Source: Escherichia coli | GTDB taxonomy: Bacteria > Pseudomonadota > Gammaproteobacteria > Enterobacterales > Enterobacteriaceae | NCBI RefSeq assembly: GCF_013122565.1 | Contig: NZ_CP053258.1 | Reading direction: 5' to 3' (one strand) | DNA: 64,000 bases | In this document: piece after piece, positions 8,432-58,935 of the stretch | Layout: each line of letters begins with the position of its first letter | Position numbering within the stretch: position 1 is the stretch's first letter | Translations under genes and position numbers: made by a program | Notes under the pieces: generated by a model | Databases searched by the model: none | The model's input: the letters and a program-made list of their open reading frames with translations, nothing else | What the model was told of the DNA's origin: nothing

Positions 8432-8532
8432 TAGTTGAATAATCAACCGGAATAAATCTCCGGCAAATAACGACAAAAACAAAATTGGCCGCTTCGGTCA
8501 GGGCCAACTATTGCCTGAAAAAGGGTAACGAC

Positions 8533-34165: not shown

Positions 34166-34770
34166 TCACTGATGCCGTTTACGTAGGTTCTCAATTACCG
34201 TCGTTAAATCCAGCTCCTGATCCTGCAACAGCACCAGCAAGTGATACATCAAGTCGGACGCTTCGTTGGTCAGTTCAAAGCGGTCATGTACCGTCGCGGC
34301 CAGTGCGGTTTCCACCCCTTCTTCGCCCACTTTCTGCGCAATGCGTTTGGTGCCGCTGGCATACAGTTTGGCTGTGTAAGAGGTTTCCGGGTCGGCAGAT
34401 TTACGCTCGGCGAGCAGTTGTTCCAGTTGATACAGGAACAGCCATTGGTGAGCGGTGTCGCCGAAGCAGCTGCTGGTGCCTTTATGGCAGGTTGGTCCGA
34501 TAGGATTCGCCAGCACCAGTAGCGTGTCGTTGTCGCAGTCCGGCGCAATATTTACTACGTTGAGGAAATTGCCTGATGTTTCGCCTTTGGTCCACAGCCG
34601 CTGTTTAGTGCGCGAGAAGAAGGTGACTTTGCCGCTTTCGACGGTTTTGTCCAGAGCTTCCGGGTTCATATAGCCCAGCATTAGCACTTCGCCAGATACC
34701 GCGTGTTGCACAATCACCGGCATAAGTCCGTCGGTTTTTTCCCAGTCCAGTTCGCGACGTTGTTGTTCTG

Positions 34771-34777
<7 letters not shown>
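34166..34777 (-). CDS. hisI: Bifunctional phosphoribosyl-AMP cyclohydrolase / phosphoribosyl-ATP pyrophosphatase
   Basis: 203 aa starting [25 protein letters not shown]; last gene of the his operon. Confidence 0.95.
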
Positions 34778-36855
<2,078 letters not shown>

Positions 36856-36856
<1 letters not shown>

Positions 36857-37922
36857 TACAGCACTCCTTTCGACGAGGGCAGGGTGTCGCCTTCCACGCG
36901 GATGGCCTGGCGCAGGGTGCGACCAAAGGCTTTAAAGAGACTCTCTACACGGTGATGATCGTTTTTACCTTTGGTTTTCAGGTGCAACGTCACGCCCATG
37001 GTGTAAGAGAGCGAACGGAAGAAGTGCTCGATCATCTCGGTGCTGAGATCGCCCACGCGCTGGTAGGTAAATTCGGCTTTATATTCCAGGTGCGGGCGAC
37101 CAGAGATATCCAGCGCGCAGCGGGCAAGGCATTCGTCCATCGGTAGCACAAAACCAAAGCGACAAATACCGCGTTTATCGCCGAGGGCAATTTTTAACGC
37201 TTCGCCCAGCGCCAGGCCGGTATCTTCGACGGTGTGGTGATCGTCGATATAGAGGTCGCCTTTGACGTTGATTTCCATGCGGAAACCGCCGTGGGTGGCG
37301 ATCTGATCCAGCATATGATCAAAGAAGCCAACGCCGGTGTTAATCTTGCTGCCACCTTCGCGATCCAGCCACACCTGGACGTCAATTTGCGTCTCTTTGG
37401 TGTTGCGCACTACATGGGCGTAACGGTCTCGTTTAGTGAGCTGCTCGCCAATCATCGGCCAGTTCAGGGTTTCGCGGTCGTAGCGTAAACCATTAATGCC
37501 CATGTTTTCCGCCAGTTGAATGTCGGTCGCGCGATCGCCAATCACATAACTGTTAGCTCGATCCATCGCTTGCTCAGCCAGATAACGCTCCACCAGTTTT
37601 ACTTTCGGCTTACGGCAGTCGCACTCATCGGCGGGCAGGTGCGGACAAATCAGCACTTCATCAAACTGTACGCCTTGCGAGGTGAAGATCTGCATCATCA
37701 GGTTGTGCGGGCCATCAAAATCCGCCTGCGGGAAACTTTGTGTTCCCAGACCATCCTGATTAGTGATCATCACCAGCTTGTAGCCCGCTTTTTGCAGCTT
37801 CAGTAGCTCCGGGATCACGCCTGGTTCAAAGGCGAGTTTGTCAAAACGGTCCACCTGAAAATCACTCGGCGGTTCGCTAATCAGGGTTCCATCGCGATCG
37901 ATAAAAAGATACTTCTGACTCA

Positions 37923-37923
<1 letters not shown>
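36856..37923 (-). CDS. hisB: Bifunctional histidinol-phosphatase / imidazoleglycerol-phosphate dehydratase
   Basis: 355 aa starting [15 protein letters not shown] (HAD phosphatase motif) with C-terminal IGPD domain. Confidence 0.95.
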
Positions 37924-40294
<2,371 letters not shown>

Positions 40295-40299
40295 GGCGA

Positions 40300-41199
40300 T
40301 CACTCCATCATCTTCTCAATCGGCAGGACCAGGATTGAACTGGCACCCAGCGCTTTCAGTTTTTCCATCGTTTCCCAGAACAGGGTTTCGCTACTGACCA
40401 TGTGCATCGCTACGCGCTGTTGGTCACCCGCCAGCGGCAGAATAGTTGGGCGTTCGGCACCTGGCAGCAGGGCGATGACTTCATCCAGACGTTCGGTCGG
40501 TGCGTGCATCATGATGTATTTTGATTCGCGCGCCTGGATCACACCCTGAATACGGGTCAGCAGTTTGTCGATCAGTTGCTGTTTGGATTCTTCCATTTCA
40601 CCATCGCGCTGGATCAGGCAGGCTTTCGAGCGGTAGATAACTTCGACTTCGCGCAGGCCGTTTGCTTCCAGCGTGGCACCGGTGGAAACCAGATCGCAAA
40701 TCGCATCCGCCAGTCCGGCACGCGGGGCGACTTCAACAGAACCGTTCAGTAAGCAGGATTTAAAAGAGATGCCTTTCTGGTCGAGATAACGCTTGAGCAG
40801 GTGAGGATAAGAGGTGGCGATACGTTTACCATTTAAGGAGAGCGGGCCGTCCCAGGCTTCATCAACCGGCGTTGCCAGCGAAAGACGGCAGCCGCCGAAA
40901 TCCAGACGACGCAGGGTAAAGTAGCGTGGATCTTCACCCTGGGCGCGGCGGTTAAGCAGCTCTTCTTCCAGCACGTTTTCGCCGATAATCCCAAGATCTA
41001 CCACGCCGTCCATTACCAGACCGGGAATGTCGTCGTCACGCACGCGCAGAATATCAATCGGCATGTTTTCTGCCATCGCGATCAGGCGCTGGGTGTGAAG
41101 ATTGATTTTAATGCCACAGCGCGCCAGCAATTCGCGTGAGTCATCACTTAAACGGCCGGATTTCTGCATAGCTATGCGTAAACGAGTGTTGTCTGTCAT
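40300..41199 (-). CDS. hisG: ATP phosphoribosyltransferase
   Basis: Track ORF to 41238; internal start gives 299 aa starting [21 protein letters not shown]; first structural gene of the his operon. Confidence 0.95.
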
Positions 41200-41245
41200 T
41201 TTGTTATTCCTCTTTAAACCTGTCTGAACCGTTATCAACCGCGCA

Positions 41246-41282
41246 ATAAAAAAGCCCCCGGAAGGTGATCTTCCGGGGGCTT
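41246..41282 (-). terminator. his operon attenuator (leader terminator hairpin with U-tract)
   Basis: Minus-strand reading: agcccccggaagatcaccttccgggggcttttttatt, a GC-rich perfect stem followed by a T-run, between hisL and hisG. Confidence 0.85.
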
Positions 41283-41344
41283 TCTCATGCGTTCATGCAC
41301 CACTGGAAGATCTGAATGTCTTCCAGCACACATCGCCTGAAAGA

Positions 41345-41395
41345 CTAGTCAGGATGATGGTGATGATGGTGGTGTTTAAATTGAACGCGTGTCAT
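41345..41395 (-). CDS. hisL: his operon leader peptide (16 aa, seven consecutive His codons)
   Basis: Minus-strand translation ATG ACA CGC GTT CAA TTT AAA CAC CAC CAT CAT CAC CAT CAT CCT GAC TAG = MTRVQFKHHHHHHHPD*, not in the ORF track because it is too short. Confidence 0.9.
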   Translation of the reverse strand: MTRVQFKHHHHHHHPD

Positions 41396-41599
41396 AAAAG
41401 TCTCTGTGAATGTTTATTCAACTGATGTCTTTTAACCTAAACCACTTTCACGTTAGAAAGCAAGGGCTTTTTTATATATTTTATGGCGATGGATTTGTTT
41501 AATGAATGAGCGGGGAAAGGAGGGTGCCTGGAGTGACTACGTTAGAAAAGAAATCGTGAAAATATGTCTTTAAAACCCTCAAGAACATTGTGTTCTGTA

Positions 41600-41730
41600 A
41601 CTCAAGTGGGCTTTGTTCCTGCCGGATGCGGAGTGAATGCCTTATCTGGTCTACAAATGTTGCGTAAATTCAATATATTGATGTTTTTTGTAGGACTGAT
41701 AAGCGGAGCGCATCAGGCAATGGTATATTT
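41600..41730. repeat. REP-like palindromic elements between the his leader region and yeeZ
   Basis: gccggatgcggagtgaatgccttatctggtctac and gtaggactgataagcggagcgcatcaggca resemble REP units; the only ORF here (41564..41761) is translation across these palindromes. Confidence 0.45.
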
Positions 41731-41822
41731 GCTAACCGTTTCGATTTCATTCATAGAATGAATTGTCAGTTTTGATACGCTAGCGTAGCCTTATAGATCT
41801 AAGGTGTATCAGGAGATAACGG

Positions 41823-43622: not shown

Positions 43623-43888
43623 AGAAAAATTATTATGACAAGCCTCTCATTCTCTTGTCATTTCCCCCCCATTTAGGCACAATGCGCCGCTGTCAAAAAA
43701 TGACTAAAAACCGACGTTTCATCAGCGTCGGTTATTTTTTGCTTCAAACCAATCATTCATACCAAGAGGCCGGGCTTCGTACCGGATAGATATTTACTAA
43801 AAATCGACAGTTGTTGTCGCTGAGGAATCCAAAAAAATGGGGCAATTTTTTGCTTACGCGACGGTTATCACCGTAAAGGAGAATGACC

Positions 43889-45247
43889 ATGTCGCATAAC
43901 GTTACTCCAAACACCTCTCGCGTGGAATTGCGTAAAACGCTTACGTTAGTTCCGGTTGTAATGATGGGTCTTGCCTATATGCAGCCGATGACGCTGTTTG
44001 ATACTTTTGGTATCGTTTCAGGCCTCACGGATGGTCATGTGCCGACAGCCTATGCGTTCGCATTGATTGCGATCCTGTTTACGGCTCTGAGCTACGGGAA
44101 GCTGGTTCGCCGCTATCCTTCTGCTGGCTCTGCATACACTTACGCCCAGAAATCCATTAGCCCGACTGTCGGCTTTATGGTGGGTTGGTCTTCTCTGCTC
44201 GACTATCTGTTCGCGCCGATGATCAACATTCTGCTGGCGAAAATCTATTTTGAAGCTCTGGTGCCTTCCATCCCATCGTGGATGTTTGTGGTGGCGCTGG
44301 TGGCCTTTATGACCGCCTTTAACCTGCGTAGTCTGAAATCCGTAGCGAACTTCAACACTGTAATCGTCGTGTTGCAGGTAGTGCTGATCGCGGTGATTCT
44401 GGGCATGGTTGTTTATGGCGTATTTGAAGGTGAAGGCGCTGGTACGCTGGCGAGCACTCGTCCGTTCTGGTCTGGCGATGCGCATGTTATCCCGATGATT
44501 ACCGGGGCGACAATCCTGTGCTTCTCCTTTACCGGCTTTGACGGCATCAGCAACCTGTCGGAAGAAACCAAAGATGCAGAGCGCGTGATCCCGCGTGCGA
44601 TTTTCCTGACCGCGCTGATTGGCGGCATGATCTTCATCTTTGCAACTTACTTCCTGCAGCTGTACTTCCCGGATATCTCTCGCTTTAAAGATCCGGATGC
44701 GTCACAGCCTGAAATCATGCTGTATGTTGCGGGTAAAGCGTTCCAGGTTGGCGCGCTGATCTTCTCCACCATTACCGTACTGGCGTCCGGTATGGCGGCG
44801 CACGCAGGCGTAGCGCGTCTGATGTACGTAATGGGTCGTGACGGCGTATTCCCGAAAAGCTTCTTCGGTTATGTACACCCGAAATGGCGTACTCCGGCGA
44901 TGAACATCATCCTGGTTGGCGCGATTGCCTTGCTGGCAATCAACTTCGACCTGGTAATGGCTACGGCGCTGATTAACTTTGGTGCGTTGGTGGCGTTCAC
45001 CTTCGTTAACCTGTCGGTCATCTCGCAGTTCTGGATCCGTGAGAAGCGTAATAAGACGCTGAAAGATCACTTCCAGTATCTGTTCCTGCCGATGTGTGGT
45101 GCGCTGACCGTTGGTGCGCTGTGGGTTAACCTGGAAGAAAGCTCAATGGTTCTGGGTCTGATCTGGGCTGCTATCGGTCTGATTTACCTGGCTTGCGTAA
45201 CCAAGAGTTTCCGTAACCCGGTTCCGCAGTACGAAGACGTAGCATAA
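43889..45247 (+). CDS. plaP: Putrescine importer PlaP (APC-family amino acid/polyamine permease)
   Basis: 452 aa from [18 protein letters not shown]; 12 predicted TM segments; synteny. Confidence 0.85.
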
Positions 45248-45285
45248 TCTTACAAGCCGGATGACATCATCATCCGGTAAATCTC

Positions 45286-45318
45286 AAAAAGCCGGAGTTT
45301 GTCGCTCCGGCTTTTTTC
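45286..45318. terminator. Bidirectional rho-independent terminator between convergent plaP and sbcB
   Basis: aaaaagccggag-tttgtcg-ctccggcttttttc: perfect GC-rich stem flanked by an A-run and a T-run, so it works on either strand. Confidence 0.65.
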
Positions 45319-45320
45319 TT

Positions 45321-46748
45321 TCAGACAATCTCTTCCGCGTACTGCCAAAGCGCTTTTAACAGCGCCACTTTTTCTTTATCGTCGGCATACTGCTGCGCCA
45401 GCATCTGAATCTCTTCTGCATAGCCTTGTAAAAACTCGGGTGTGAATACCTGGCGGCGGTGCTCCAGCCAACGTTGCTGCTCGGCATAATCCAGCGTCCC
45501 TGGGAAGTTGCGCGCCCGATAATTGAACAACAGCTTTTCAATTCGTTTATCAACAAAAGTGATATCCAGTGCCGGTAAATTACGCGGCTCGGTTTCCAGC
45601 ACAATTTTCATTGCTGCACGATCGGCGTCACTGAAAAAGCCGTTATAAAGCTGTGCATCCACGTTATCTGAAGGCGTAAACGGTTCGGCTTCCGCGAATA
45701 TCGCCACCACTTTTTCGCGCACTTGCGGATTTTCACGCAGAATTTTCAGGTTATCGAGGCAATGCTGACGATTAATTCCCAGTCGGTCGGCATCTTCCGG
45801 GCGTAGCGTATTCGCCTGGGCCAGCACCGGACATTTATTGATATGCACCAGCTTAACCGGAACGGCGGCGTTATCGCTAAGATCGGTTTTTGCGGTATAT
45901 AAACGCTCGCGCAATGTGTCGCTATCCAGTTCCAGTAATGGCGAAATGTCTCCTGCCAAATCCACCATAATTACGGCATTGCGATTTTCAGGATGCCACG
46001 CCAGCGGTGCCACCCAGCTGGTATTGCCGCGCCATGCCCCAAACATTCCGGAAACGTGCACCAGGGGTTTCATCTGCGGAACATCAATCAACGCCATCAG
46101 TTTGTGTTTATTACGATGGGTAAAGAGATAATCAAACAGACGTGGCTGACACGTTTTTACCAGTTTCGCCATCGCAATAGTAGCGTACACGTCAGCCATC
46201 GCATCGTGGGCATTGCTATGTTCAATACCATTCGCTTTGGTTAAATGCTCAAGGCGAAAGCTCGGTAGACCGTCATCATTTTCAGGCCAATTTATTCCTT
46301 CCGGGCGCAGGGCATAACAGGCACGCATAACATCCAGTAAATCCCAGCGCGAGTTATCATGCTGCCAGCTCCAGGCGTAAGGATCGTAGAAATTACGATA
46401 AAAAATGTTGCGTGTGACTTCGTCGTCGAAACGCACATTGTTGTAGCCCAGAATACAGGTCTTCGGTACGGTAAAAAGCGAGTGAATACGAGCGGCAAAT
46501 GCGGCTTCGTTTTCTCCTTTCGCCCGAGCTTCCTGCGGGGTAATACCGGTAATTAATACTGCTCCAGGCTGGGGTAAATAGTCATCCGCGGGCTTGCAGT
46601 AAAAGACTTCGGGTTCGCCGATGATATTGAATTCGCTATCGGTGCGAATGGCTGCGAACTGTGCAGGGCGATCTAACGCGGGGTGCGTGCCAAAGGTTTC
46701 GTAATCGTGAAACAAAAAGGTAGATTGTTGCTTACCGTCATTCATCAT
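45321..46748 (-). CDS. sbcB: Exodeoxyribonuclease I
   Basis: Track ORF to 46796; internal start gives 475 aa starting MMNDGKQQSTFLFHDYETFGTHPALDRPAQFAAIRTD (DEDDh exonuclease motif). Confidence 0.95.
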   Translation of the reverse strand: MMNDGKQQSTFLFHDYETFGTHPALDRPAQFAAIRTDSEFNIIGEPEVFYCKPADDYLPQPGAVLITGITPQEARAKGENEAAFAARIHSLFTVPKTCILGYNNVRFDDEVTRNIFYRNFYDPYAWSWQHDNSRWDLLDVMRACYALRPEGINWPENDDGLPSFRLEHLTKANGIEHSNAHDAMADVYATIAMAKLVKTCQPRLFDYLFTHRNKHKLMALIDVPQMKPLVHVSGMFGAWRGNTSWVAPLAWHPENRNAVIMVDLAGDISPLLELDSDTLRERLYTAKTDLSDNAAVPVKLVHINKCPVLAQANTLRPEDADRLGINRQHCLDNLKILRENPQVREKVVAIFAEAEPFTPSDNVDAQLYNGFFSDADRAAMKIVLETEPRNLPALDITFVDKRIEKLLFNYRARNFPGTLDYAEQQRWLEHRRQVFTPEFLQGYAEEIQMLAQQYADDKEKVALLKALWQYAEEIV

Positions 46749-46956
46749 TAGGTTAAATCCGTTATTTCTGCTGTCTGCCAGAGTATCAAATATCATCGTG
46801 CTAATCAGCTTTAGCGCGACAATTTGACAGCGAGTGGCAACAGATCATGTCAGATGAAAATGAGCGGGTAGTCACATTTTCTTGCACTTTATTCCAGCCA
46901 GTTCATAAGTATTTCCGTAAAAAGAACAGCTATTTGAAACTCCTGAGGGTTTGCTG

Positions 46957-48123
46957 TTGAAACGCCGTCTTATTATTGCTGCTTCTTTGTTCGTTTTTAA
47001 CTTATCGTCTGGTTTTGCGGCGGAAAACGTTCCTTTTTCACCTCAGCCTCCAGAGATTCATGCCGGGTCCTGGGTATTGATGGATTACACCACCGGTCAG
47101 ATCCTCACCGCGGGTAATGAGCATCAACAGCGCAATCCCGCCAGCCTGACAAAGCTGATGACAGGCTATGTCGTGGATCGCGCTATCGATAGTCATCGCA
47201 TTACGCCAGACGATATTGTCACCGTGGGGCGCGATGCGTGGGCGAAAGATAATCCGGTGTTTGTCGGTTCTTCACTGATGTTTTTGAAAGAGGGCGATCG
47301 CGTATCGGTACGTGATTTAAGCCGTGGTTTAATTGTGGATTCCGGAAATGACGCTTGTGTTGCTCTGGCTGACTATATTGCCGGTGGGCAACGGCAGTTT
47401 GTTGAAATGATGAACAACTATGCCGAGAAGCTGCATCTCAAGGATACGCATTTTGAAACAGTGCATGGTCTGGATGCACCAGGCCAGCATAGCTCGGCTT
47501 ATGATTTAGCTGTGCTTTCTCGCGCTATCATCCACGGCGAGCCCGAGTTTTATCATATGTACAGTGAGAAAAGCCTCACCTGGAACGGTATCACCCAGCA
47601 AAACCGTAACGGGTTATTGTGGGATAAAACCATGAATGTTGACGGCCTGAAAACGGGTCATACTTCTGGTGCCGGGTTTAATCTCATTGCTTCGGCTGTC
47701 GATGGGCAGCGTCGTCTCATTGCAGTGGTAATGGGTGCTGACAGCGCAAAAGGTCGTGAGGAAGAGGCAAGAAAATTACTGCGTTGGGGGCAACAAAACT
47801 TTACTACGGTGCAAATTTTGCACCGTGGGAAAAAGGTCGGTACGGAACGCATCTGGTATGGCGATAAAGAAAATATCGCCCTGGGAACAGAACAAGAGTT
47901 CTGGATGGTACTACCGAAAGCCGAAATTCCACATATCAAAGCCAAATATACCCTTGATGGTAAAGAGCTCACCGCGCCAATTAGCGCCCATCAGCGGGTA
48001 GGGGAAATTGAACTTTATGACCGTGATAAACAGGTGGCGCACTGGCCGCTGGTTACCCTGGAATCTGTCGGGGAAGGCAGCATGTTTTCTCGCCTGAGTG
48101 ATTATTTCCACCATAAGGCCTGA
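46957..48123 (+). CDS. dacD: D-alanyl-D-alanine carboxypeptidase DacD (PBP6b)
   Basis: 388 aa from an apparent TTG start (MKRRLIIAASLFVFNLSSGFAAEN); active-site SxxK (ASLTK) and SGN motifs; gaggg Shine-Dalgarno upstream. Confidence 0.9.
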   Translation: MKRRLIIAASLFVFNLSSGFAAENVPFSPQPPEIHAGSWVLMDYTTGQILTAGNEHQQRNPASLTKLMTGYVVDRAIDSHRITPDDIVTVGRDAWAKDNPVFVGSSLMFLKEGDRVSVRDLSRGLIVDSGNDACVALADYIAGGQRQFVEMMNNYAEKLHLKDTHFETVHGLDAPGQHSSAYDLAVLSRAIIHGEPEFYHMYSEKSLTWNGITQQNRNGLLWDKTMNVDGLKTGHTSGAGFNLIASAVDGQRRLIAVVMGADSAKGREEEARKLLRWGQQNFTTVQILHRGKKVGTERIWYGDKENIALGTEQEFWMVLPKAEIPHIKAKYTLDGKELTAPISAHQRVGEIELYDRDKQVAHWPLVTLESVGEGSMFSRLSDYFHHKA

Positions 48124-48241
48124 CCTTTCTTTTGCAGCAGACTGGCAGGAGTGCGAGTCTGCTCGCATAATCAACACTCATTCCTTGTGGTTTTAACATT
48201 GCAACTACACTGTATATAAAAACAGTATTAATGGAGGCGTC

Positions 48242-48715
48242 ATGAACTACGAGATTAAGCAGGAAGATAAACGTACCGTTGCAGGTTTCCATCTCGTTGG
48301 CCCGTGGGAACAGACGGTAAAGAAAGGTTTTGAGCAGTTGATGATGTGGGTAGATAGCCAAAATATTGTGCCGAAGGAGTGGGTTGCTGTCTATTACGAC
48401 AATCCAGATGAAACACCCGCCGAAAAATTACGCTGCGACACCGTCGTGACGGTGCCGGGTTACTTTACGCTCCCCGAAAACAGTGAGGGCGTCATTCTGA
48501 CAGAAATTTCAGGTGGTCAGTATGCGGTGGCGGTAGCTCGTGTAGTCGGTGATGATTTTGCTAAACCCTGGTATCAGTTCTTTAATAGCCTCTTGCAGGA
48601 CAGTGCTTATGAAATGTTACCAAAGCCCTGCTTCGAGGTTTATTTGAACAATGGCGCGGAAGATGGGTACTGGGATATCGAAATGTATGTTGCGGTGCAG
48701 CCAAAACATCACTAA
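48242..48715 (+). CDS. sbmC: DNA gyrase inhibitor SbmC (GyrI)
   Basis: 157 aa starting [36 protein letters not shown]; synteny. Confidence 0.95.
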
Positions 48716-48913
48716 TTCATCTCAGGGCGGTGTGTTAACGCGATGACCACTCTTTTTTTTGAAAGCGAAAAGAGTAAGATGCGCCTTTCAATTTTTTCGC
48801 TCCTGCCGGGAAATTACACTGTTCCCGGTTTGTCCGTCGGATAATTCAGAGGCGCGCCTTCTGGCCGACAGATGAGTTATGAGCGCTTTTAATCTTCATT
48901 ACGGAGTTTCTGC

Positions 48914-49972
48914 GTGCGTGCCGATAAGTCATTATGCCCGTTTGAAATCCGGGTATACCGCCATTACCGCATTGTGCATGGTACTCGGGTCGCGCTGGCA
49001 TTCCTGCTCACTTTTCTCATTATCCGCCTGTTTACTATCCCGGAAAGCACCTGGCCGCTGGTCACCATGGTGGTGATTATGGGGCCAATCTCGTTCTGGG
49101 GTAACGTTGTCCCTCGCGCCTTCGAACGTATTGGCGGTACGGTGTTGGGTTCGATATTAGGTCTTATCGCTCTGCAACTGGAGTTAATCTCGTTACCGCT
49201 GATGTTAGTCTGGTGCGCGGCGGCTATGTTTCTTTGCGGTTGGCTGGCGCTGGGCAAGAAACCGTATCAAGGATTATTGATTGGGGTGACGCTGGCAATT
49301 GTTGTGGGTTCCCCGACAGGTGAAATTGATACGGCGTTATGGCGAAGCGGTGATGTGATCCTCGGCTCTTTACTGGCAATGTTGTTTACCGGTATCTGGC
49401 CACAACGGGCGTTCATCCACTGGCGCATTCAACTGGCGAAAAGTCTGACCGAGTATAATCGGGTCTATCAATCAGCATTCTCACCGAACTTACTCGAACG
49501 CCCACGTCTTGAAAGCCATCTACAAAAACTCCTGACCGATGCCGTGAAAATGCGTGGGCTGATTGCGCCCGCCAGCAAAGAAACTCGTATTCCAAAATCG
49601 ATATATGAAGGTATCCAGACCATTAACCGCAATCTGGTTTGTATGCTGGAGTTGCAAATCAATGCATACTGGGCCACGCGCCCCAGCCATTTCGTGTTAT
49701 TGAACGCGCAAAAACTTCGTGATACCCAGCACATGATGCAGCAAATACTGCTGAGCCTTGTTCATGCGTTGTACGAAGGTAATCCGCAGCCGGTTTTTGC
49801 CAATACGGAAAAATTGAACGATGCTGTGGAAGAGCTGCGTCAGTTGCTCAATAACCACCATGACCTTAAGGTTGTGGAAACACCAATCTATGGTTATGTG
49901 TGGCTGAACATGGAAACGGCACATCAGCTTGAGTTGCTATCGAATCTGATTTGCCGGGCCTTGCGCAAATAA
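48914..49972 (+). CDS. yeeA: Inner membrane protein YeeA (FUSC-like)
   Basis: 352 aa starting MRADKSL…FEIRVYRHYRIVHGTRVALAFLLTF; hydrophobic N-terminal half; synteny. Confidence 0.85.
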   Translation: MRADKSLCPFEIRVYRHYRIVHGTRVALAFLLTFLIIRLFTIPESTWPLVTMVVIMGPISFWGNVVPRAFERIGGTVLGSILGLIALQLELISLPLMLVWCAAAMFLCGWLALGKKPYQGLLIGVTLAIVVGSPTGEIDTALWRSGDVILGSLLAMLFTGIWPQRAFIHWRIQLAKSLTEYNRVYQSAFSPNLLERPRLESHLQKLLTDAVKMRGLIAPASKETRIPKSIYEGIQTINRNLVCMLELQINAYWATRPSHFVLLNAQKLRDTQHMMQQILLSLVHALYEGNPQPVFANTEKLNDAVEELRQLLNNHHDLKVVETPIYGYVWLNMETAHQLELLSNLICRALRK

Positions 49973-50143
49973 TTCCTGAACTTCAGAATCATCTTGCTGC
50001 TGCTTCGATTCAGCAAGGATAAAGGGTATGATAGTGAAAAGGGATAAAAGCATTGTCATCTGCGGCAGCTATGAGTAATGTTGGCCCTAACGAATAGCGG
50101 TTGCTTAAACGAATCCGACTCTCACATTATCAGGGGTATAAAA

Positions 50144-50473
50144 ATGGAAACTACCAAGCCTTCATTCCAGGACGTACTGGAATTTGTTCGTCTGTTCCGT
50201 CGTAAGAACAAACTGCAACGTGAAATTCAGGACGTTGAGAAAAAGATCCGTGACAACCAGAAGCGCGTCCTGCTGCTGGACAACCTGAGCGATTACATCA
50301 AGCCGGGGATGAGCGTTGAAGCAATCCAGGGCATCATCGCCAGCATGAAAGGTGACTATGAAGATCGCGTTGACGATTACATCATCAAAAATGCCGAGCT
50401 CTCCAAAGAACGCCGCGATATCTCCAAAAAGCTGAAAGCTATGGGCGAAATGAAAAACGGCGAAGCGAAGTAA
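50144..50473 (+). CDS. yeeX: UPF0265-family protein YeeX
   Basis: Track ORF 50078..50473; internal start [41 protein letters not shown] gives 109 aa. Confidence 0.85.
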
Positions 50474-50488
50474 TTCCTGTTTTATTCA

Positions 50489-50513
50489 ATGAGGGTTGCC
50501 CGGCAACCCTCAT
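50489..50513. terminator. Palindromic hairpin between convergent yeeX and pduV (putative shared terminator)
   Basis: atgagggttgcc-c-ggcaaccctcat, a 12-bp perfect inverted repeat, with T-rich sequence on the plus side and ttgaataaaac on the minus side. Confidence 0.5.
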
Positions 50514-50573
50514 TGCTCATTGATTCTTTTCTGTGTATCACAGTCATCATTCCCATCTGATAACCTATCGAAA

Positions 50574-51017
50574 TTAGCGACAGACATCTTCTGTATGCAG
50601 CAAGGAAAAAAGTTCTGTAACTCCATTGTTATTAACCGCACTGGTTACTAACACGTTCTGCGCTCCAGCTTCCCGTAACCAACATTTCACCAAAGATATT
50701 TGTTCCATGCTGGCTAAATCTGCTTTGGTTACTACTCCAATGACCGGGCGATTCATTGACGAGGTAAAGCCTGGCGAAAAAGGTGACCACGGTGCGTCCG
50801 CATTAAGCACCAGCGCGATAATGTCTGCTTCGCAGGCACTGACCAACAGTGCACTGTAGAGGCTGCGGTTTTCGAGGTATTCGCCTGGTGTATCAATGGT
50901 GGTCGGGGACCAGACGATTGCCTGCGTTTTCTGATAATGAATATTTTCGCCACGCAGACATTGCGTGAGTGACGTTTTTCCGCACTGGCTGGGGCCGATG
51001 AGCATCATACGTTGCAT
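50574..51017 (-). CDS. pduV: PduV, EutP/PduV-family small GTPase associated with the microcompartment
   Basis: 147 aa; P-loop [15 protein letters not shown]; last gene of the pdu operon in this window. Confidence 0.85.
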
Positions 51018-51021
51018 AATG

Positions 51022-51372
51022 TCAGGTCCGCGTAATGGGGCAGGCGGTAAAGCGCATCATTTCACCCAGCGTACGGGTAACCTGGCTAAGTGCATATTCA
51101 ATTGCAGAAACATCACCAGTCAGCACTACGGCACCGGTAAAACGATCAAGAAAACCGATCTCTACAGCGCCTGATTTTGTGGCGATATCGCATGCGATGA
51201 TAGATGCTTCGCTGGGGGTAATCGTCAGAATGCCAATAGCAGAAACGGTGTCTGGTAAACCCAATTTCTTAAACAGATCCTTCCCTGGATTGGCGATGAC
51301 ATGTGCCAGCGTGACCTGCTTACCAGGGACATATTCCTGAATCATCCGTTCAGTTGTGTGCTGAGTTGTCAT
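51022..51372 (-). CDS. pduU: PduU, microcompartment shell protein (circularly permuted BMC domain)
   Basis: 116 aa from the internal ATG overlapping the pduT stop (TAATG); …[32 protein letters not shown]… matches recalled PduU/EutS-type sequence. Confidence 0.85.
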
Positions 51373-51926
51373 TATCCCTCCACCATCTGACGCCACATGG
51401 CTTCATGTGGGCGGGCAATCACCGACCGATAGACCAACAAACCTTTTTCCCCCGCACGCTCGCTGGCGACAGAGACCGCGTTATTAACATCTGAAATATC
51501 GCCAGCAACCACCATGTAGCATTTACCGCCAATGCCAAAAGCCATATGCACGCGAACGAGAATGACATTCGCAGCTTTGACTGCACAATCGGCAGCGTCA
51601 ATGCAGGCGGCGACACTCCAGGTTTCGACTACGCCGACAGCCCGGTGCTGTTCAGCATGGTTAAGTCCGCTGATTGCAGAAAGGATGCTGGGATGAATAT
51701 TCGGCAGGACAAGACTGTCGACCAGCATTTCGCCAGCAAGGGAAGCGCCGCTGTTGATGGCCTGTTGCACCGCGCCCACATCGCCACCGAGCATCAGTAG
51801 AAATTTTCCGGGGCATAGCGTTTTGCTGACCAGTAACTCAACGTTGGCGCTTTTCAGCATGGCATCGCCGGTTTCCATCCCTTTCGCGATACTGCTAAGT
51901 TCTAAAATACCTACCGCTTTCGACAT
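51372..51926 (-). CDS. pduT: PduT, tandem-BMC-domain shell protein (Fe-S binding)
   Basis: 184 aa starting [32 protein letters not shown]; two BMC repeats. Confidence 0.9.
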
Positions 51927-51928
51927 GG

Positions 51929-53272
51929 TTAACCTCTCACAAGCGTAATCGCGTTTTCTGTCACATCGCTGACCATGCCATCAATGCTGGCATGAATGGG
52001 GGCACCTAATGTGCCGTGTGGAATTTGACCTACACATTGTCCATGAACGACGCGATCGCCTTTTTGTACACACGCAATTGCGCTGGCACCGATGTGTTGG
52101 CGTAACAATAACGTCACTTTTTCGGGCTGAGGCACCTGTTCAGACAATGGCGCATCCTGATACCACGGGGTTAAGCCCAGTCTGGTTACCAGCCGTTTTA
52201 CGGGAATCAGTCGATAATTTGCCATTGGATCTGCAGGATTTAAGGCACCTTCGTAGCGGAGATTTTGTGCGCGTAATTCCTGCTTAAGCAGGCGGTTTAT
52301 GCGCATTGGTGAAATTCCTACCGGACAGGCGATGCTGGCGCAGACGTTGCACTCCGAACAGGTGAGCGCCGTCAGTAACAGTTGTGGCGTAGCGAGCTGT
52401 TGGTAGTTAACCGCACGTACTAATAAATGGGGTGCCAGTTCGTGACCGATTAAATGACGAGGGCAGAGATCGGTACACAAGCGGCATTGCTCACAAACAG
52501 TTTTCGCGACGGCAAGTACGCTGCGGTCATTCTGCATTCGACGTTGGATCAGTGAATGAGAGTTGGGTAAAACCAGCAAGCCGCCAGTGGTTTTGCTGAC
52601 TGGTGTGTCGAGCGATGTGATCAAACTTCCCATCGTCGGCCCGCCATTGATAAAACCAGGAGCATCTACTGTTGCGCCGCCCGCCAGCGCCAGGACTTCA
52701 CGTAAAGACATGCCGATGGGGACGGTTACCGTTATTGGTTTCGCCACTGCACCATTAACGGTGAGTGTGCGGCGCGTCACTGGATACTGTTGCTCGACGG
52801 CTCTGGCAATATTAAGTACGGTTTGAACATTATTGACCACCACACCGACGCTAACGGGTAATGCAGCGGGTGGAACGCGGCGACCAGTTGCCATCCAGAT
52901 GGTCAGCACTTCGTCTCCTGCGGGGTAAACGTCGGGCAAAATATGCAGGCGGATATCCGGTGGTAACAGTGGTGTGAGTGCGTTTATTGCCAGTTGATAT
53001 TTCTCTTTCAGCGCGATGATTCCGCTACTGGCCCCGGTGGCTTTCATCGCATAGTGAACACCGCGAAGCAGGCGGCTGGCTTGCTGCGCCATTAACTGTT
53101 GATCCACTTTCAACATGGGTTCGCATTCCGCCGCATTCACCAGGAAAGTGTCAACACGCGCTTGTAGCTTAATATGGGTTGGAAAACCTGCGCCGCCAGC
53201 ACCCACGACACCTGCTGCCTGTACTCGCTCGCGGATAGTCTGGTCGTCGCAGGAGGTTAATCCGACGTTCAT
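51929..53272 (-). CDS. pduS: PduS, cobalamin reductase (RnfC/NuoF-like flavoprotein with 4Fe-4S clusters)
   Basis: 447 aa; two ferredoxin-like cysteine clusters ([25 protein letters not shown]). Confidence 0.9.
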
Positions 53273-54381
53273 AACAATTCCTCGAGCAGTTCTGCAATCG
53301 CGGAGGCATCAGCCGCATGCGGGTTGGTACGCAACGTTGCATCCGCCAGCGCCGCCTGAACCATATCTGGTATGCGTATTGACCATTCTGCTTTTTTTTC
53401 TTTCAGCGCATTGGCAAGAGTCGGCAGCGTACAGGTTGTTTTAAGCTGTTCAATATGTTGAATAAGTGCATTCAGGCTGGCGGTGTCATTGGCGTTGTCC
53501 GGGCATAAATGGCACGTTTTCGCCAGCCGGGCGTAGCGTTTGGCTGCGCGCGGATCGCCAGCATTAAAGCGGATAACCGCCGTGAGCAGGAGCGCATTCG
53601 CCAGGCCGTGCGGCAGATGAAACTGTCCGCCGAGTTGATGAGCAATTGCATGGTTTAAACCGAGTCCGGCCTGGCTAAAGGCCACTCCTGCAAGCGTCGA
53701 AGCATTATGCATTTTGCCACGGGTGGCAAGACAATCGCCTTTCTTCACTGCAGTGGGCAGGTATTGAAAAACAATTTGCACGGCTTTTTCGACCAGTGCA
53801 TCCGTGAAGTCGCTGGCGCGGGGAGAAACATAAGCTTCAAGCGCATGGGTTAAAACATCCATCCCGGTATTGGCCGTTATCGCCGGTGGCACGCTGACGA
53901 CCAGAGATGGATCAAGGATCGCGATATCCGGATAAAGTGCATTATCGAAAAGGGGATATTTAATCCCTTTCTCAGGATCGCTGATGACACAAGCACTGGT
54001 CACTTCGGAACCGGTACCGCTGGTGGTAGGAATGGCTACGCAGGTTTCAATTTCAATGCCACACTGGCGACCGAACCAGACAATCGCTTTTGCGGCGTCC
54101 AGGGCAGAACCGCCGCCAAAACCGATAACCACATCCGGGCGTAAAGTCTGCATTTGCGCAATGCCTTTCACCACGATCTGGATAGTTGGGTCAGGCGTTA
54201 TTTCGCTAAAAATACTGAGACGATTACTGTCGGGCAGCGCCTGATGCAACGTGTCAATGAGTGGTGAGCGTGCCAGAAAGGCGTCGCAAATAATCCAGAT
54301 GTGTTTATGAGAGAAACGGCTAAGTACCTTGAGACTTCCCGGTCCGCTGTATAAACGCGTCTGCAGTGAAAAAGTATTCAT
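53269..54381 (-). CDS. pduQ: PduQ, 1-propanol dehydrogenase (iron-containing alcohol dehydrogenase family)
   Basis: 370 aa; Fe-ADH motifs (…GGGSALDAAKAI…, metal-binding His residues). Confidence 0.9.
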   Translation of the reverse strand: MNTFSLQTRLYSGPGSLKVLSRFSHKHIWIICDAFLARSPLIDTLHQALPDSNRLSIFSEITPDPTIQIVVKGIAQMQTLRPDVVIGFGGGSALDAAKAIVWFGRQCGIEIETCVAIPTTSGTGSEVTSACVISDPEKGIKYPLFDNALYPDIAILDPSLVVSVPPAITANTGMDVLTHALEAYVSPRASDFTDALVEKAVQIVFQYLPTAVKKGDCLATRGKMHNASTLAGVAFSQAGLGLNHAIAHQLGGQFHLPHGLANALLLTAVIRFNAGDPRAAKRYARLAKTCHLCPDNANDTASLNALIQHIEQLKTTCTLPTLANALKEKKAEWSIRIPDMVQAALADATLRTNPHAADASAIAELLEELL

Positions 54382-54391
54382 TTCCGTTTCT

Positions 54392-55777
54392 CTAGCGAAT
54401 TGAAAAGCCGCTGGTTAACACGCAGCGTCGTGAGCGGGCAAAAGTCCGTGCTGACGTTGTCCCTTCTCCGGTCGGTGTTGCAATGGTAAAGGTCGTAAAG
54501 CCTTCGCCGCCGACGCCAATACCCGCCCAGGAGGGGCCGTTTTTGACAAAGATTGAGGTTTGCATAACGCGCGCAGCAAGGTTGAGCCGTGAGACGTTCT
54601 GCGAGTGCATAATTGCCGTGTGGTGCAAGCCGTCTTCCACTTTCAACGCCAGAGTGAGAGCGCTGTCAAAATCGTTGACCTTCACAATGGGCAGCATTGG
54701 CATCAGTTGTTCACAAGTAACCCAACTATCATCGGCGTCAACAACAGCAATCAGTAGGCGCGGCGCTTTTGCGGGCAAAGGGAGGCCCGCTGCTCCCAGC
54801 AAGGCTGATGGGCTTTTCCCAACCAGTTTTTTGTTGGTGCTACCGTCTGGCAGGCAAATTGCACGCAATTTCTCCGTTTGTTCACGGTTAAGAAGAAGTG
54901 CGCCAAAGCTTTGCATCTGCTGAATTAAATAATCTGCCACTGATGCCACGACAATCAGGCTTTTTTCAGCGATACACGGCAGGTTGTAATCAAAAGAAGC
55001 GCCGTTGATGATGTCCTCGGCGGCTTTCACAATATCAGCCGTTTCATCGACGATACACGGAGGGTTACCCGCTCCGGCACCAATCACTTTCTTGCCACTT
55101 TTCATTCCCATGGTGACGATCCCCGGACCGCCGGTAATCGCCAGAACGCTGATTTTAGGGTGCGCCATCATCTGTTCGGTGGCAGCAAAGGTCGGTTCAG
55201 ATACGGTAACGATCAGGTTATGAATGCCACTACAGCGAAACGCGATGTCTTCGATTGTGGTAATCAGTTTTAACGAAACGTATTTGGCTCCCGGGTGTGG
55301 ACTGAAGTAGACGCTATTACCTGCTGCCAGCATGCTGATGCTGTTGTTAATGATGGTTTCCGTGGGGTTGGTGCTTGGCGTGACCGAGCCAATAACCCCA
55401 AACGGAGAGTACTCAAACAAAACCATGCCACCATCACCGGTTAGTGCTGTGGTGGTTAAATCTTCAATTCCTGGCGTGTTATCAAGTGCCGCTTTGTTTT
55501 TTAGGTACTTATCTTCTTTATTTCCCATCCCCGTTTCTTTGGCGCTTTCTTCTGCCAGTTCGGTAAGGCGGGGCATTAATTCTTCGCGAATGGCGCTGAT
55601 AATGGCGCTACGGGTTTTAAGCGGGCACTGTTGAAAGCGTAAAAAGGCCTGGTGTGCTGCGCAGACCGCTTCATCGACAGTCTGGAAAATAGCGTTTCTT
55701 TGCGTTCGTGGTGTAGCGGGGACAAGTTGCTCACGCAGAATAATGCGGATCAGTGTTTCTAATTCAGAGTTATTCAT
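54392..55777 (-). CDS. pduP: PduP, CoA-acylating propionaldehyde dehydrogenase
   Basis: 461 aa starting MNNSELETLIRIIL…; aldehyde dehydrogenase catalytic Cys region (…NLPCIAEKSLIV…); close match to recalled Salmonella PduP. Confidence 0.92.
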   Translation of the reverse strand: MNNSELETLIRIILREQLVPATPRTQRNAIFQTVDEAVCAAHQAFLRFQQCPLKTRSAIISAIREELMPRLTELAEESAKETGMGNKEDKYLKNKAALDNTPGIEDLTTTALTGDGGMVLFEYSPFGVIGSVTPSTNPTETIINNSISMLAAGNSVYFSPHPGAKYVSLKLITTIEDIAFRCSGIHNLIVTVSEPTFAATEQMMAHPKISVLAITGGPGIVTMGMKSGKKVIGAGAGNPPCIVDETADIVKAAEDIINGASFDYNLPCIAEKSLIVVASVADYLIQQMQSFGALLLNREQTEKLRAICLPDGSTNKKLVGKSPSALLGAAGLPLPAKAPRLLIAVVDADDSWVTCEQLMPMLPIVKVNDFDSALTLALKVEDGLHHTAIMHSQNVSRLNLAARVMQTSIFVKNGPSWAGIGVGGEGFTTFTIATPTGEGTTSARTFARSRRCVLTSGFSIR

Positions 55778-56781
55778 TGGTTTACTCCCACGTTAATTGC
55801 CGCCATTGCGCTTTGGGCAATATCCATGTCTTGTTCAACGCTACCGCCGCTGATGCCAAGCCCGCCAAGCAATTTTCCGTCACGCCAGAGGGGGAAGCCG
55901 CCACCAAAAGTGACGACTTTTCCTTGCATATGGCTTTCGAGCCCGTAAAGCGGCGCGCCGGGTTGCACGGTATCAGCAAGCTTGTGGGTTGCCGTTTTCA
56001 TCGCCACGGCGGTCCAGGCTTTTTTCGGTGCCAGTTCACTGCTGACCAACAGGGCATCAGGCATCCGCCAGGTAACACTTTCTGTTCCGTTGGCATCAAC
56101 AATGCTGATGACAACGGGAATATGCAGTTCATCTGCGCGCATTGCCGCACTACGAATGAGTTGGTGAAGATCCTGAAAAGTGAGCGGCATTGTGCGTTCC
56201 TTCATTGCTGGTGTGTGGTTGGCTTCGTGATAACGTTTTGTGATTTCCTGAATTATCAGATTTTGATGAGCAACGTTGTCTTCCACGCGGGCGAGGGCAT
56301 ACAGGCAATCGGAAAGTCGGTTGATATAGTGCAGCAAAACATTCCGGACGGTGGTTTCCGTTGTCAGTTCAACCAGCCGTCTTTCAGCCCGTCGAGCCAC
56401 CGTGCGGGCGAAATGCATGCGGCTTGCGGCTTCACATCGACCAGGCAGAATGAAGCTGTGAACTGGGGGGACGGCGTTCATTGCACTATCGATCGCGTTT
56501 TCCAGCACGGCAATTTCTTCCGTACCGACGTAACGCTGCTGCGCTGACGGCTGTTCGCTTTCACTGGCGAGTTCGGCGCTAAACCAAAATATCTGTTGTT
56601 GAATGGCTTCCAGTAAGATGCGATGGCTTTCAATGGAGGTGGCGCAATAACACAGACTAAGTGTCGCGTTCAGTTCATCCAGCGTGCCATAGGTTTCGAC
56701 ACGTAGATGAGTTTTGCTTACGCGCTGTCCGGTAAATAAAGACGTACTTCCTGAATCACCTGTTCGGGTATAAATTGCCAT
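55774..56781 (-). CDS. pduO: PduO, ATP:cob(I)alamin adenosyltransferase with C-terminal domain of unknown function
   Basis: 335 aa starting MAIYTRTGDSGSTSLFTGQRVSKTHLRVETYGTLDELNA (PduO-type ATR signature). Confidence 0.92.
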   Translation of the reverse strand: MAIYTRTGDSGSTSLFTGQRVSKTHLRVETYGTLDELNATLSLCYCATSIESHRILLEAIQQQIFWFSAELASESEQPSAQQRYVGTEEIAVLENAIDSAMNAVPPVHSFILPGRCEAASRMHFARTVARRAERRLVELTTETTVRNVLLHYINRLSDCLYALARVEDNVAHQNLIIQEITKRYHEANHTPAMKERTMPLTFQDLHQLIRSAAMRADELHIPVVISIVDANGTESVTWRMPDALLVSSELAPKKAWTAVAMKTATHKLADTVQPGAPLYGLESHMQGKVVTFGGGFPLWRDGKLLGGLGISGGSVEQDMDIAQSAMAAINVGVNQ

Positions 56782-56792
56782 CTTTCAGCTCC

Positions 56793-57068
56793 TTAGCGCG
56801 AAAGCGTATCGACAATGCCGACCACTGCCAGGTCGATGGCCTCGTTAGGGCCGGAAAACACATGTCTGGCGCTGGAACCACTGCTGAGGAGTACCAACTC
56901 ACCAACGCCTGCGCCGACTGAATCAACGGCAACTTCGTCGCCGGTTAAAGGCGTGAGAGGCAGTTCGCCGTCAGCACTGACCCGGCGAACCAGCAGTAGT
57001 TTTTTCCCGATCAGAGAAGGTGATTTTTGCGTGGATACTACCGCGCCAGTGACTCGAGCCAGATGCAT
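56793..57068 (-). CDS. pduN: PduN, microcompartment vertex protein (EutN/CcmL family)
   Basis: 91 aa starting [30 protein letters not shown]. Confidence 0.9.
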
Positions 57069-57071
57069 AGG

Positions 57072-57563
57072 TTACTCCTGCCTGATTAACTGAATATTTC
57101 GGGTAATTGCCGCTTCACGAGCCAGTGCGGTCACACAACATTTCCGCTGTAACACCAGTATTCCAGAGCTTAACTGCGCAATATCGGCATAACTTAAAAG
57201 TCGATCACGATGAAGGTAGATCGGTTGCCCTTGCTCGTCGCACCAGCTTAGCGGTAGACGGGCGAGAGTCTTCAATTCAATGGCGTTCAGGAAATGATGC
57301 TGCAACGACAATTGAATGTGCATTCCCCAGGCTAACGCTTCGTGTATCTGGATTGCTGCTCGATCTGACGTTTCGTTCTCCGCAAGTTGTCGCAGCAGCG
57401 GCAGATCGACATATCGGATTTGTAATGACGCATACTGATGAACGCTCTCTTGAACGCTGGCGTCTCGCAGTTGAAAAACAGTCAGCACGAGTGTTTTTCC
57501 CGCACGTTGTTTAAGGCGAAAAACCACTTCGTCAACAATACGTTGCATCAGCATGTTATTCAT
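57072..57563 (-). CDS. pduM: PduM, microcompartment structural protein
   Basis: 163 aa; position between pduL and pduN; recalled PduM length. Confidence 0.8.
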   Translation of the reverse strand: MNNMLMQRIVDEVVFRLKQRAGKTLVLTVFQLRDASVQESVHQYASLQIRYVDLPLLRQLAENETSDRAAIQIHEALAWGMHIQLSLQHHFLNAIELKTLARLPLSWCDEQGQPIYLHRDRLLSYADIAQLSSGILVLQRKCCVTALAREAAITRNIQLIRQE

Positions 57564-58192
57564 GGCACTGACACCAGTGTGGCAAAAACGTCAGGGCTAT
57601 CAGCGCCTGCGGCGTTGGCCTCATCGGTATCAATATGCATTTCAAGACGCATATCCGGAGAGACGCGAACAGCGACGTTTTCGAATATCAGTCGTCGCTC
57701 ATCACCTTCAATGGAAACCGCCACTTTATCGCCATGCGTAACGCCATAAATCAGGGCATCCAGCGGAGACATATGAATATGCCGTTGCGCGACAATAACG
57801 CCAGATGTGATCTCCAGTTCCGCAAATGGGCTTATCAAACGAATCCCCGGAGTGCCGCTGAGATCGCCTGACATGCGTAGCGGGGCGGTGATCCCTAACG
57901 TTCTGGCGTCCGTACGGGAAATTTCCACCTGGCTTGCATTGCGTAGCGGCCCCAACAAGCGAACGTTGTGCAATTTACCTTTTGGTCCCTCCAACGTAAC
58001 AACCTGTTCAGCCGCGAATTGGCCAGGCTGCATTAACGGCTTTTTCTCGCTAATCGGTTGTTCAGGAAAAAGACGCAAATAATCCGCTGTTGAAAGATGA
58101 ATATGACGACTGGAAACACCCAGAGGGATAGGGCGCTCGCGCATCTCATCCAGAATCTGACTCACTGTTTCCTGCAAGGTTTGTTTATCCAC
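57560..58192 (-). CDS. pduL: PduL, phosphate propanoyltransferase
   Basis: 210 aa; starts MDKQTLQETVSQILDEMRERP… with a region …LGVSSRHIHLSTADYL… (PduL/EutD-type fold). Confidence 0.9.
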   Translation of the reverse strand: MDKQTLQETVSQILDEMRERPIPLGVSSRHIHLSTADYLRLFPEQPISEKKPLMQPGQFAAEQVVTLEGPKGKLHNVRLLGPLRNASQVEISRTDARTLGITAPLRMSGDLSGTPGIRLISPFAELEITSGVIVAQRHIHMSPLDALIYGVTHGDKVAVSIEGDERRLIFENVAVRVSPDMRLEMHIDTDEANAAGADSPDVFATLVSVP

Positions 58193-58194
58193 TG

Positions 58195-58617
58195 CTACTC
58201 CCCTCGCTTATTGGCGTGCAGGCAAAGTGAGCGGGGCTCGCCTTTTTGCCGCTGACATGCCGGGTCAAGACACAAATTACAACTGATAATCTCTGAGGTG
58301 ACGGTTGTTGCTGGTGTTTCGCTTGTTTCAACCGTCACAGTCAATGCTTCAGTTGTGTGGGGCAGGATGCCCTCTCCCGGGCGGGCAATCACTTTGTGTG
58401 CGACAAGGCCATTTCGCTGTCCGGCGAAACTGGCTCCCGTCGCGATCGCCGCATTAACCGAGGCGACGTCACCGTTGATTTTGATGAGCGTCCAGCCTGA
58501 GCCATTGGTCTTCTCAAGGCCAACCAGCGTGATGGACGCGGCTTTTGCCATAGCGTCTGCGCAACTGATGGCGAGTGCCAGACCACTGACTTCAAGTAAT
58601 CCCAGTGATTGCTTCAC
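58195..58617 (-). CDS. pduK: PduK, BMC-domain shell protein with C-terminal Cys-rich extension
   Basis: 140 aa starting MKQSLGLLEVSGLALAISCADAMAKAASITLVGLEK; C-terminal CNLCLDPACQRQ motif. Confidence 0.88.
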   Translation of the reverse strand: MKQSLGLLEVSGLALAISCADAMAKAASITLVGLEKTNGSGWTLIKINGDVASVNAAIATGASFAGQRNGLVAHKVIARPGEGILPHTTEALTVTVETSETPATTVTSEIISCNLCLDPACQRQKGEPRSLCLHANKRGE

Positions 58618-58640
58618 GCTGTGCTCCTTAGCAAATGGGG

Positions 58641-58916: not shown

Positions 58917-58935
58917 ACAGCGTTTCTCCTGTGGA

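Follow-up and report, generated by a model that had tools for sequence, protein, structure and literature searches.

The minus strand immediately upstream of hisG in this stretch of Escherichia coli DNA – the 64,000 nucleotides that were analysed as a whole and are referred to here as the window – carries, with a probability that we put at about 97%, the leader and transcription attenuator of the hisLGDCBHAFI operon, acting by ribosome-mediated attenuation. The element is the known E. coli hisL attenuator itself rather than a mere relative of it, and as such it was already known; the his attenuator ranks among the founding cases of transcription attenuation. A first-pass annotation, made from the letters alone, had proposed textbook attenuation control upstream of hisG, and on this the Rfam match, the identity to K-12, the RefSeq annotation, the his operon downstream and the B:C and D:E helices all agree, and no result of the analysis speaks against it.

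The leader peptide gene is defined by two features, the coordinates of which descend along the minus strand.

41395-41345, minus strand: hisL, with the ATG at 41395-41393, codons running from 41395 to 41348 and the stop codon TAG at 41347-41345, from the reverse-complement translation and the RefSeq annotation.
41374-41354, minus strand: codons 8-14 of hisL, the run of seven His codons (CAC CAC CAU CAU CAC CAU CAU).

Translated from the reverse complement of 41345-41395, the product of these 16 codons is MTRVQFKHHHHHHHPD, followed by the stop; the translation and the codon listing confirm the 16-codon leader with seven consecutive His codons that had been described before. The placement of leader and attenuator in the first-pass annotation also holds, and the strand, which it had left unstated, is added here as minus. 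One mark of the His_leader family – a short translatable ORF with consecutive His codons – is accordingly present (16 codons, seven of them His).

The family assignment itself comes from Rfam, where His_leader (RF00514) matches 41369-41246 on the minus strand with 131.6 bits against a gathering score of 49 (E = 1.4e-21), over the whole of the model (positions 1-126 of 126) and with no non-canonical pairs. Genes for histidine biosynthesis can also be placed under a T-box riboswitch, which senses uncharged tRNA-His directly, and such control exists in Corynebacterium and other Gram-positive bacteria (PMC3896937). Against its operating here, neither a T-box nor any other riboswitch family reaches its Rfam gathering score anywhere in the window, and the leader contains a translated ORF with His codons, which is absent from T-box leaders (PMC3896937). 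Only His_leader matches at the leader in Rfam, and T-box control was rejected as exceedingly improbable.

The match to K-12 extends to single bases. The promoter, leader ORF, five helices, U tract and hisG start are identical to those of hisL (b2018) in E. coli K-12 MG1655, and the window is base-identical to MG1655 from about 41527 to the hisG start except for two SNPs upstream of the promoter, which the alignment places at window positions 41523 and 41487. A megablast search with 41150-41560 found the region in 5423 of the 5426 complete E. coli genomes, where RefSeq labels the homologous stretch 'hisL: his operon leader peptide', 'His leader region' and 'hisG'. Alignment with the E. coli and Salmonella leaders, suggested earlier as a way of checking the element, shows the window to equal K-12 at every leader base and Salmonella to differ by a few substitutions.

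Downstream of the leader, on the same strand, lie the genes that it would control.

40300-41199, minus strand: hisG, ATP phosphoribosyltransferase, 299 aa (TIGR00070 and TIGR03455, RefSeq).
34166-40303, minus strand: the his genes past hisG, each protein scoring above the curated cut-off of its NCBIfam equivalog.

The HisG protein, with 193 bits for TIGR00070 against a cut-off of 75.75, is translated from an ATG at 41199-41197 that is preceded, about 8 nt upstream, by the Shine-Dalgarno sequence AAGAGGA; with HisG identified by TIGR00070 and its ATG at 41199, the leader does precede hisG, as had been claimed. This first structural gene is the next one downstream on the leader's strand, and it is followed on that strand, in canonical order, by HisD, C, B, H, A, F and IE, so that the operon hisGDCBHAFI is complete and the leader directly precedes histidine biosynthesis genes that share its strand. 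K-12 and the window agree in the gene order hisL-hisGDCBHAFI.

Between hisL and hisG lies the attenuator proper.

41245-41283, minus strand: helix E:F, the intrinsic terminator (attenuator), from folding and as the third Rfam helix.

Its two arms, E (AAAGCCCCCGGAAG, 41283-41270) and F (CUUCCGGGGGCUUU, 41264-41251), pair over 14 bp around the 5-nt loop AUCAC (41269-41265), with an energy of -26.9 kcal/mol, and 3' of the stem come T6 (41253-41248), A and TT (41246-41245), which read U6AUU in the RNA. From the end of the hisL stop codon (41345) to the stem the distance is 61 nt if the A-U pairs are included and 64 nt for the G+C core only; a GC-rich hairpin with a U tract had been reported about 60 nt past the leader, and the measured distance, the 14-bp stem and the U6AUU tail match that description. 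The last U of the tract (41245) is separated from the hisG ATG (41199) by 46 nt, and an intrinsic (Rho-independent) terminator is consequently found between hisL and hisG. The 161-nt leader as a whole has a minimum free energy (MFE) of -68.4 kcal/mol, compared with -36.9 +/- 3.8 kcal/mol for shuffled sequences (z = -8.3), none of the 200 shuffles being as good. A simple consensus terminator scan of the window did not report this hairpin, probably because maximal stem extension pairs the U tract with the 5' flank GAGAAA and leaves no free T run; the miss is a caution against taking the silence of such a scan as evidence that a terminator is absent.

Short ORFs are frequent in general, as are hairpins, and the consensus scans for terminators and promoters flagged nothing here; this might be held to speak for a coincidence, a chance short ORF next to an ordinary terminator that belongs to a transcription unit upstream, the two being uncoupled in regulation. 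Yet 100 dinucleotide-preserving shuffles contain no match to (CAY)7, a pattern that the 64-kb window matches at a single place; there is no same-strand upstream gene to terminate, yeeZ being divergent; the E-value of the His_leader match is of the size given above; and the H7-P-D-stop end of the peptide is kept, together with all helices, in at least 53 distinct Enterobacteriaceae leaders. The Rfam match, the conservation and the shuffle test led us to reject this coincidence, the likelihood of which we consider negligible.

These relatives were collected by scanning a species-level genome collection for (CAY)7-CCN-GAY, which gave at least 120 loci. Among the matches listed, at least about 70 are true leaders (ending in H7-P-D-stop), from Escherichia, Salmonella, Citrobacter, Enterobacter, Kluyvera, Leclercia, Kosakonia, Mangrovibacter, Siccibacter, Atlantibacter and other genera, and none of the true leaders among them comes from a more distant genus; the loci from Tolumonas, Aeromonadales, Ignatzschineria, Pseudomonas, Granulosicoccaceae and Desulfuromusa gave no His_leader match in Rfam. 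With duplicates and incomplete loci removed, 53 leaders, all from Enterobacteriaceae, were aligned with the window (54 rows, 53 of them distinct).

The classical model of the his attenuator divides the leader RNA into six segments, A to F, all of which are present here, and each of which is shared between two mutually exclusive helices. Five helices result, A:B, C:D and E:F as opposed to B:C and D:E; in addition to E:F, which is paired at 99.2% among the 53 leaders, they are as follows.

41327-41362, minus strand: helix A:B, -11.7 kcal/mol, the first Rfam helix, 100% paired in the 53 leaders.
41318-41345, minus strand: helix B:C, part 1 of the antiterminator, GUCUUUCAGG with CUGGAAGAC, -10.6 kcal/mol, 100% paired in the 53 leaders.
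41302-41327, minus strand: helix C:D, GCUGGAAGA with UCUUCCAGU, -11.9 kcal/mol, the second Rfam helix, 100% paired.
41267-41312, minus strand: helix D:E, part 2 of the antiterminator, GAUCUUCC (41312-41305) with GGAAGAUC (41274-41267), -15.2 kcal/mol, 99.2% paired.

Segment A consists of His codons 12-14 with the Pro and Asp codons, and D:E ties up the 3' half of terminator arm E plus the terminator loop. Taken over the 53 leaders, the terminator conformation is paired in 99.7% of alignment cells and the antiterminator in 97.5%, as against 38-53% with slid partners. The stems are near-invariant, and variation falls in the C:D loop, the spacer between D and E, the terminator loop and the region downstream of the U tract. 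A covariation test on the 53 distinct Enterobacteriaceae leaders found no pair changed on both sides, the shuffles equalling the observed value, and since the stems are invariant in the sampled Enterobacteriaceae, covariation is uninformative for the helices, for or against. The only common stem substitution is an A/G exchange at alignment column 83, in segment C, which keeps the pairs of both helices, turning A-U into G-U in C:D and U-A into U-G in B:C; this is the behaviour expected of a nucleotide with two partners.

The his leader of Salmonella enterica, to which the model of Johnston et al. (1980) applies, has the same peptide, MTRVQFKHHHHHHHPD, and the same stems A-F, as read in subsp. 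arizonae, whose leader scores 129.7 bits with Rfam His_leader. It differs from the window in His codon 14 (CAC, here CAU), in the terminator loop (AUCAU, here AUCAC) and in a longer U tract, and it has an A to G change in segment C by which an A-U pair becomes G-U, with pairing kept in both helices.

Several of the collected leaders vary at the 5' end of hisL. In six Enterobacter/Lelliottia loci an ATG lies upstream in frame, from which the product would be MNKHSSRIYMTRVQFKH7PD; another locus (L121) has ten consecutive His codons (MSVQFKH10PD), and hisL of E. coli E69 begins MVRVQFK. None of these variants alters the C-terminal H7-P-D-stop or any of the stems.

The same logic, with a leader ORF rich in codons for the amino acid whose genes are controlled, is found in trpL, pheL, leuL, thrL and ilvL, whose regulatory codons and sequences differ from those of the his leader. 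Among these attenuators the his leader has the longest known uninterrupted regulatory run, of seven His codons, and six segments, A-F, compared with four in trp. Also common to amino-acid attenuators are an intrinsic terminator, a pause hairpin, and antiterminator helices that overlap those of the terminator (PMC1183508, PMC9291695).

Transcription of the leader can be assigned a promoter, a start and a pause with varying confidence.

41434-41463, minus strand: probable primary his promoter (hisLp/hisp1), read from the sequence and the same as in K-12.
41426, minus strand: back-calculated start of transcription (+1), for a leader RNA of about 180 nt.
41324-41325, minus strand: predicted RNA polymerase pause, with U 41325 at -1, G 41324 at +1 and G 41334 at -10.

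The promoter elements, TTGCTT at -35 (41463-41458) and TAGGTT at -10 (41439-41434), are separated by an 18-nt spacer, and an A/T-rich stretch lies upstream of them at about 41485-41465. The consensus promoter scan did not flag this promoter, each hexamer matching at only three of six positions; as the position of the two hexamers fits the start deduced below, they are probably the primary his promoter. The start was placed at 41426 because the DnaA-box positions published as +46-56, +126-134 and +187-195 (PMC10989985) then map onto the only matching 9-mers, at 41381-41371, 41301-41293 and 41240-41232; with +1 there, the RNA up to the end of the U tract measures about 180 nt, in agreement with the length of the leader RNA stated in that paper.

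In the upper A:B stem, CCUGA (41353-41349) pairs with UCAGG (41340-41336) around an 8-nt loop that contains the hisL stop codon. We take this upper 5-bp stem to be the his pause hairpin, on the basis of PMC9291695 and of what is generally known of the his pause. Both the hisL pause hairpin and a G-10 Y-1 G+1 pause consensus are described in PMC9291695. The stem is followed, 11 nt further on, by a putative pause at which the sequence GCGAUGUGUGCU precedes the G at +1, exactly as in K-12, and RNA polymerase would be expected to pause at U41325, where both the consensus and the hairpin spacing fit.

On these elements the attenuation model, set out for the his leader in PMC4046918 and reviewed in PMC3896937, would operate as follows. 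Transcription of the minus strand would start at about 41426, and RNA polymerase would pause past the A:B hairpin until a ribosome begins to translate hisL. With charged tRNA-His plentiful, the ribosome would pass the seven His codons, reach the stop codon and cover B; C:D would then pair and leave E free for E:F, and the G+C-rich hairpin with its U tract would end transcription at about 180 nt. With charged tRNA-His scarce, the ribosome would stall on the His codons and cover only A, so that B:C and D:E could form, the terminator would come too late and the polymerase would continue into hisG. If hisL were not translated at all, A:B, C:D and E:F would form and transcription would terminate. 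For the same 16-codon peptide and helix set, the mechanism was experimentally established in Salmonella (PMC4046918), where the his attenuator has also served as a translation-speed reporter (PMC4046918); the response to charged tRNA-His and the need for leader translation are documented in Salmonella (PMC4046918) and for the identical E. coli sequence (PMC10989985).

Folding of the alternative antiterminator and terminator structures, which had been put forward as a further check, found all five helices, and the switch between them is reproduced by staged folding and not by equilibrium folding. At equilibrium, no switch was visible when the full-length leader was folded with 30 nt masked as the footprint of a ribosome, codon by codon: the terminator had a probability of about 1.0 (0.999-1.00) at every ribosome position. 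Since the equilibrium always gives the terminator, the antiterminator can act only kinetically, and the switch is not thermodynamic. Staged folding used truncated nascent transcripts with a moving 3' end, and only the RNA 3' of the ribosome's leading edge; it replaced truncated folding that allowed 5'-3' pairing across the ribosome, which was noisy.

At the stage when C has just been transcribed, staged folding gives B:C a probability of 0.75-0.86 with the ribosomal A site on His codons 8-13, of 0.22 at codon 14 and of 0.00 at the Pro, Asp and stop codons, while in the absence of a ribosome A:B has a probability of 0.83. Once E and the loop have emerged and F is still unmade, a ribosome on codons 8-13 is associated with B:C at 0.70-0.86 and D:E at 0.93-1.00, which sequesters E; at the same stage and with no ribosome, A:B stands at 0.97, C:D at 0.82 and D:E at 0.00, so that E is free for F. 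The mutually exclusive pair of helices typical of a His_leader, B:C with D:E, is accordingly seen in staged folding to sequester the 5' arm of the terminator under a stall. Two results of the same folding qualify this: with D only just transcribed, C:D outweighs B:C at equilibrium although the ribosome is stalled, and at the E-plus-loop stage a ribosome on the stop codon leaves D:E (0.96) favoured over C:D at equilibrium. As the equilibria of the stalled and the reached-stop states are not separated, the distinction between them rests on the order in which helices form rather than on their stability, and, as far as these folding models go, this dependence accords with the classical kinetic model. 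Equilibrium folding cannot reveal the his switch, since in thermodynamic terms the terminator always wins; the choice would be a kinetic one, made while transcription proceeds.

The MFE fold of the untranslated leader contains two additional, long-range helices, both of which enclose A:B and C:D. In the first, GCGUUCA pairs with UGAACGC (41388-41382 with 41295-41289, minus strand; hisL codons 3-5), and in the second, CACCAC pairs with GUGGUG (41374-41369 with 41303-41298, minus strand; His codons 8-9). They are paired at 98.8% across the 53 leaders, against 15-35% when slid, and the changes in them are one-sided and of the wobble-preserving kind only. These helices may explain conserved synonymous sites in the 5' half of hisL, and they may be related to the tRNA-His-like shape of the his leader that is mentioned in PMC10989985.

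The same paper provides a rival to a purely ribosomal sensor. In the DnaA-dependent riboswitch model (Yao et al. 2023), the DnaA protein binds 'rDnaA boxes' in the leader RNA, as a layer on ribosome sensing or in partial replacement of it: on the RNA ahead of the His codons, DnaA would obstruct the ribosome, and between C:D and E:F it would tip the balance towards E:F. A dnaA(A345S) mutant shows about 4-fold higher his transcription, an effect for which the hisL-SL region is needed, and the leader RNA co-immunoprecipitates with DnaA in vivo (PMC10989985). The four published boxes are present in the window (41381-41373, 41379-41371, 41301-41293 and 41240-41232), because its sequence equals that of K-12. 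However, each of them has two mismatches to the 9-mer consensus, and the window has 1351 equally weak matches, an average of one in about 47 nt; nine of them fall in the 255-nt leader region, against 5.4 expected from the density in the window. With matches that weak and frequent, sequence alone gives the DnaA reading no support. Binding of DnaA to the RNA was, moreover, not found in vitro, the authors themselves state that direct binding lacks conclusive evidence (PMC10989985), and the effect of dnaA on his transcription could be indirect. We regard a role for bound DnaA as unlikely; DnaA is a possible modulatory layer and no alternative to sensing by the ribosome, which the authors of PMC10989985 also confirm.

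Somewhat less probable still is the wider conjecture that the leader RNA is more than a ribosome sensor, with a DnaA-like protein or tRNA-His biasing the choice between its structures, or with the abundant 180-nt terminated RNA acting in trans. Such an extra regulatory layer could include the two conserved long-range helices, GCGUUCA/UGAACGC and CACCAC/GUGGUG.

The chromosomal surroundings differ from K-12 in several respects that leave the his leader unaffected. The intergenic region between hisL and yeeZ (41396-41822, 427 bp) is without the yefM-yoeB toxin-antitoxin pair found there in K-12, and the breakpoint relative to K-12 lies at about 41527. This toxin-antitoxin-less allele has query coverage of at least 80% in 1192 of 5416 complete E. 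coli genomes, and in partial-coverage matches sampled down the ranking yefM-yoeB is annotated between hisL and yeeZ. The same intergenic region contains, at 41620-41655 on the plus strand, a degenerate REP-like palindromic element, TGCCGGATGCGGAGTGAATGCCTTATCTGGTCTACA, read from the sequence.

Further along, plaP (43883-45247) directly precedes sbcB (45321-46796, minus strand) with a gap of 45248-45320, and the thiosulfate transporter genes tsuA-tsuB (yeeE-yeeD), which lie between the two in K-12, are absent; E. coli strain ET201 has the same plaP-sbcB layout. From about 50500 to 64000, on the minus strand, propanediol-utilisation microcompartment genes (pduV/U/T, a 4Fe-4S protein, and pduQ onward) adjoin tmaR and occupy the K-12 site of the cryptic prophage CP4-44. 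For 44800-52000 the best E. coli match is only 98.6% identical.

Four other RNA elements of the window reach their Rfam gathering scores.

8479-8528, plus strand: algC RNA.
12918-12988, minus strand: naRNA4, a REP-derived nucleoid-associated RNA.
18337-18375, plus strand: JUMPstart, upstream of the presumed O-antigen cluster.
43668-43742, plus strand: the sRNA STnc240, upstream of yoeI/plaP.

In the Salmonella, Siccibacter and Mangrovibacter loci, too, STnc240 lies close to hisL.

Because the attenuator is identical to that of K-12, it teaches nothing new about attenuation, and an extra function of the leader RNA, if true, would belong to every E. coli his leader and not to this window in particular. 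The value of the attenuator here lies in annotation: it shows where regulation of the his operon begins, fixes the minus strand, and identifies the window as Escherichia coli-like chromosome from the wca / O-antigen / gnd / his / sbcB region.
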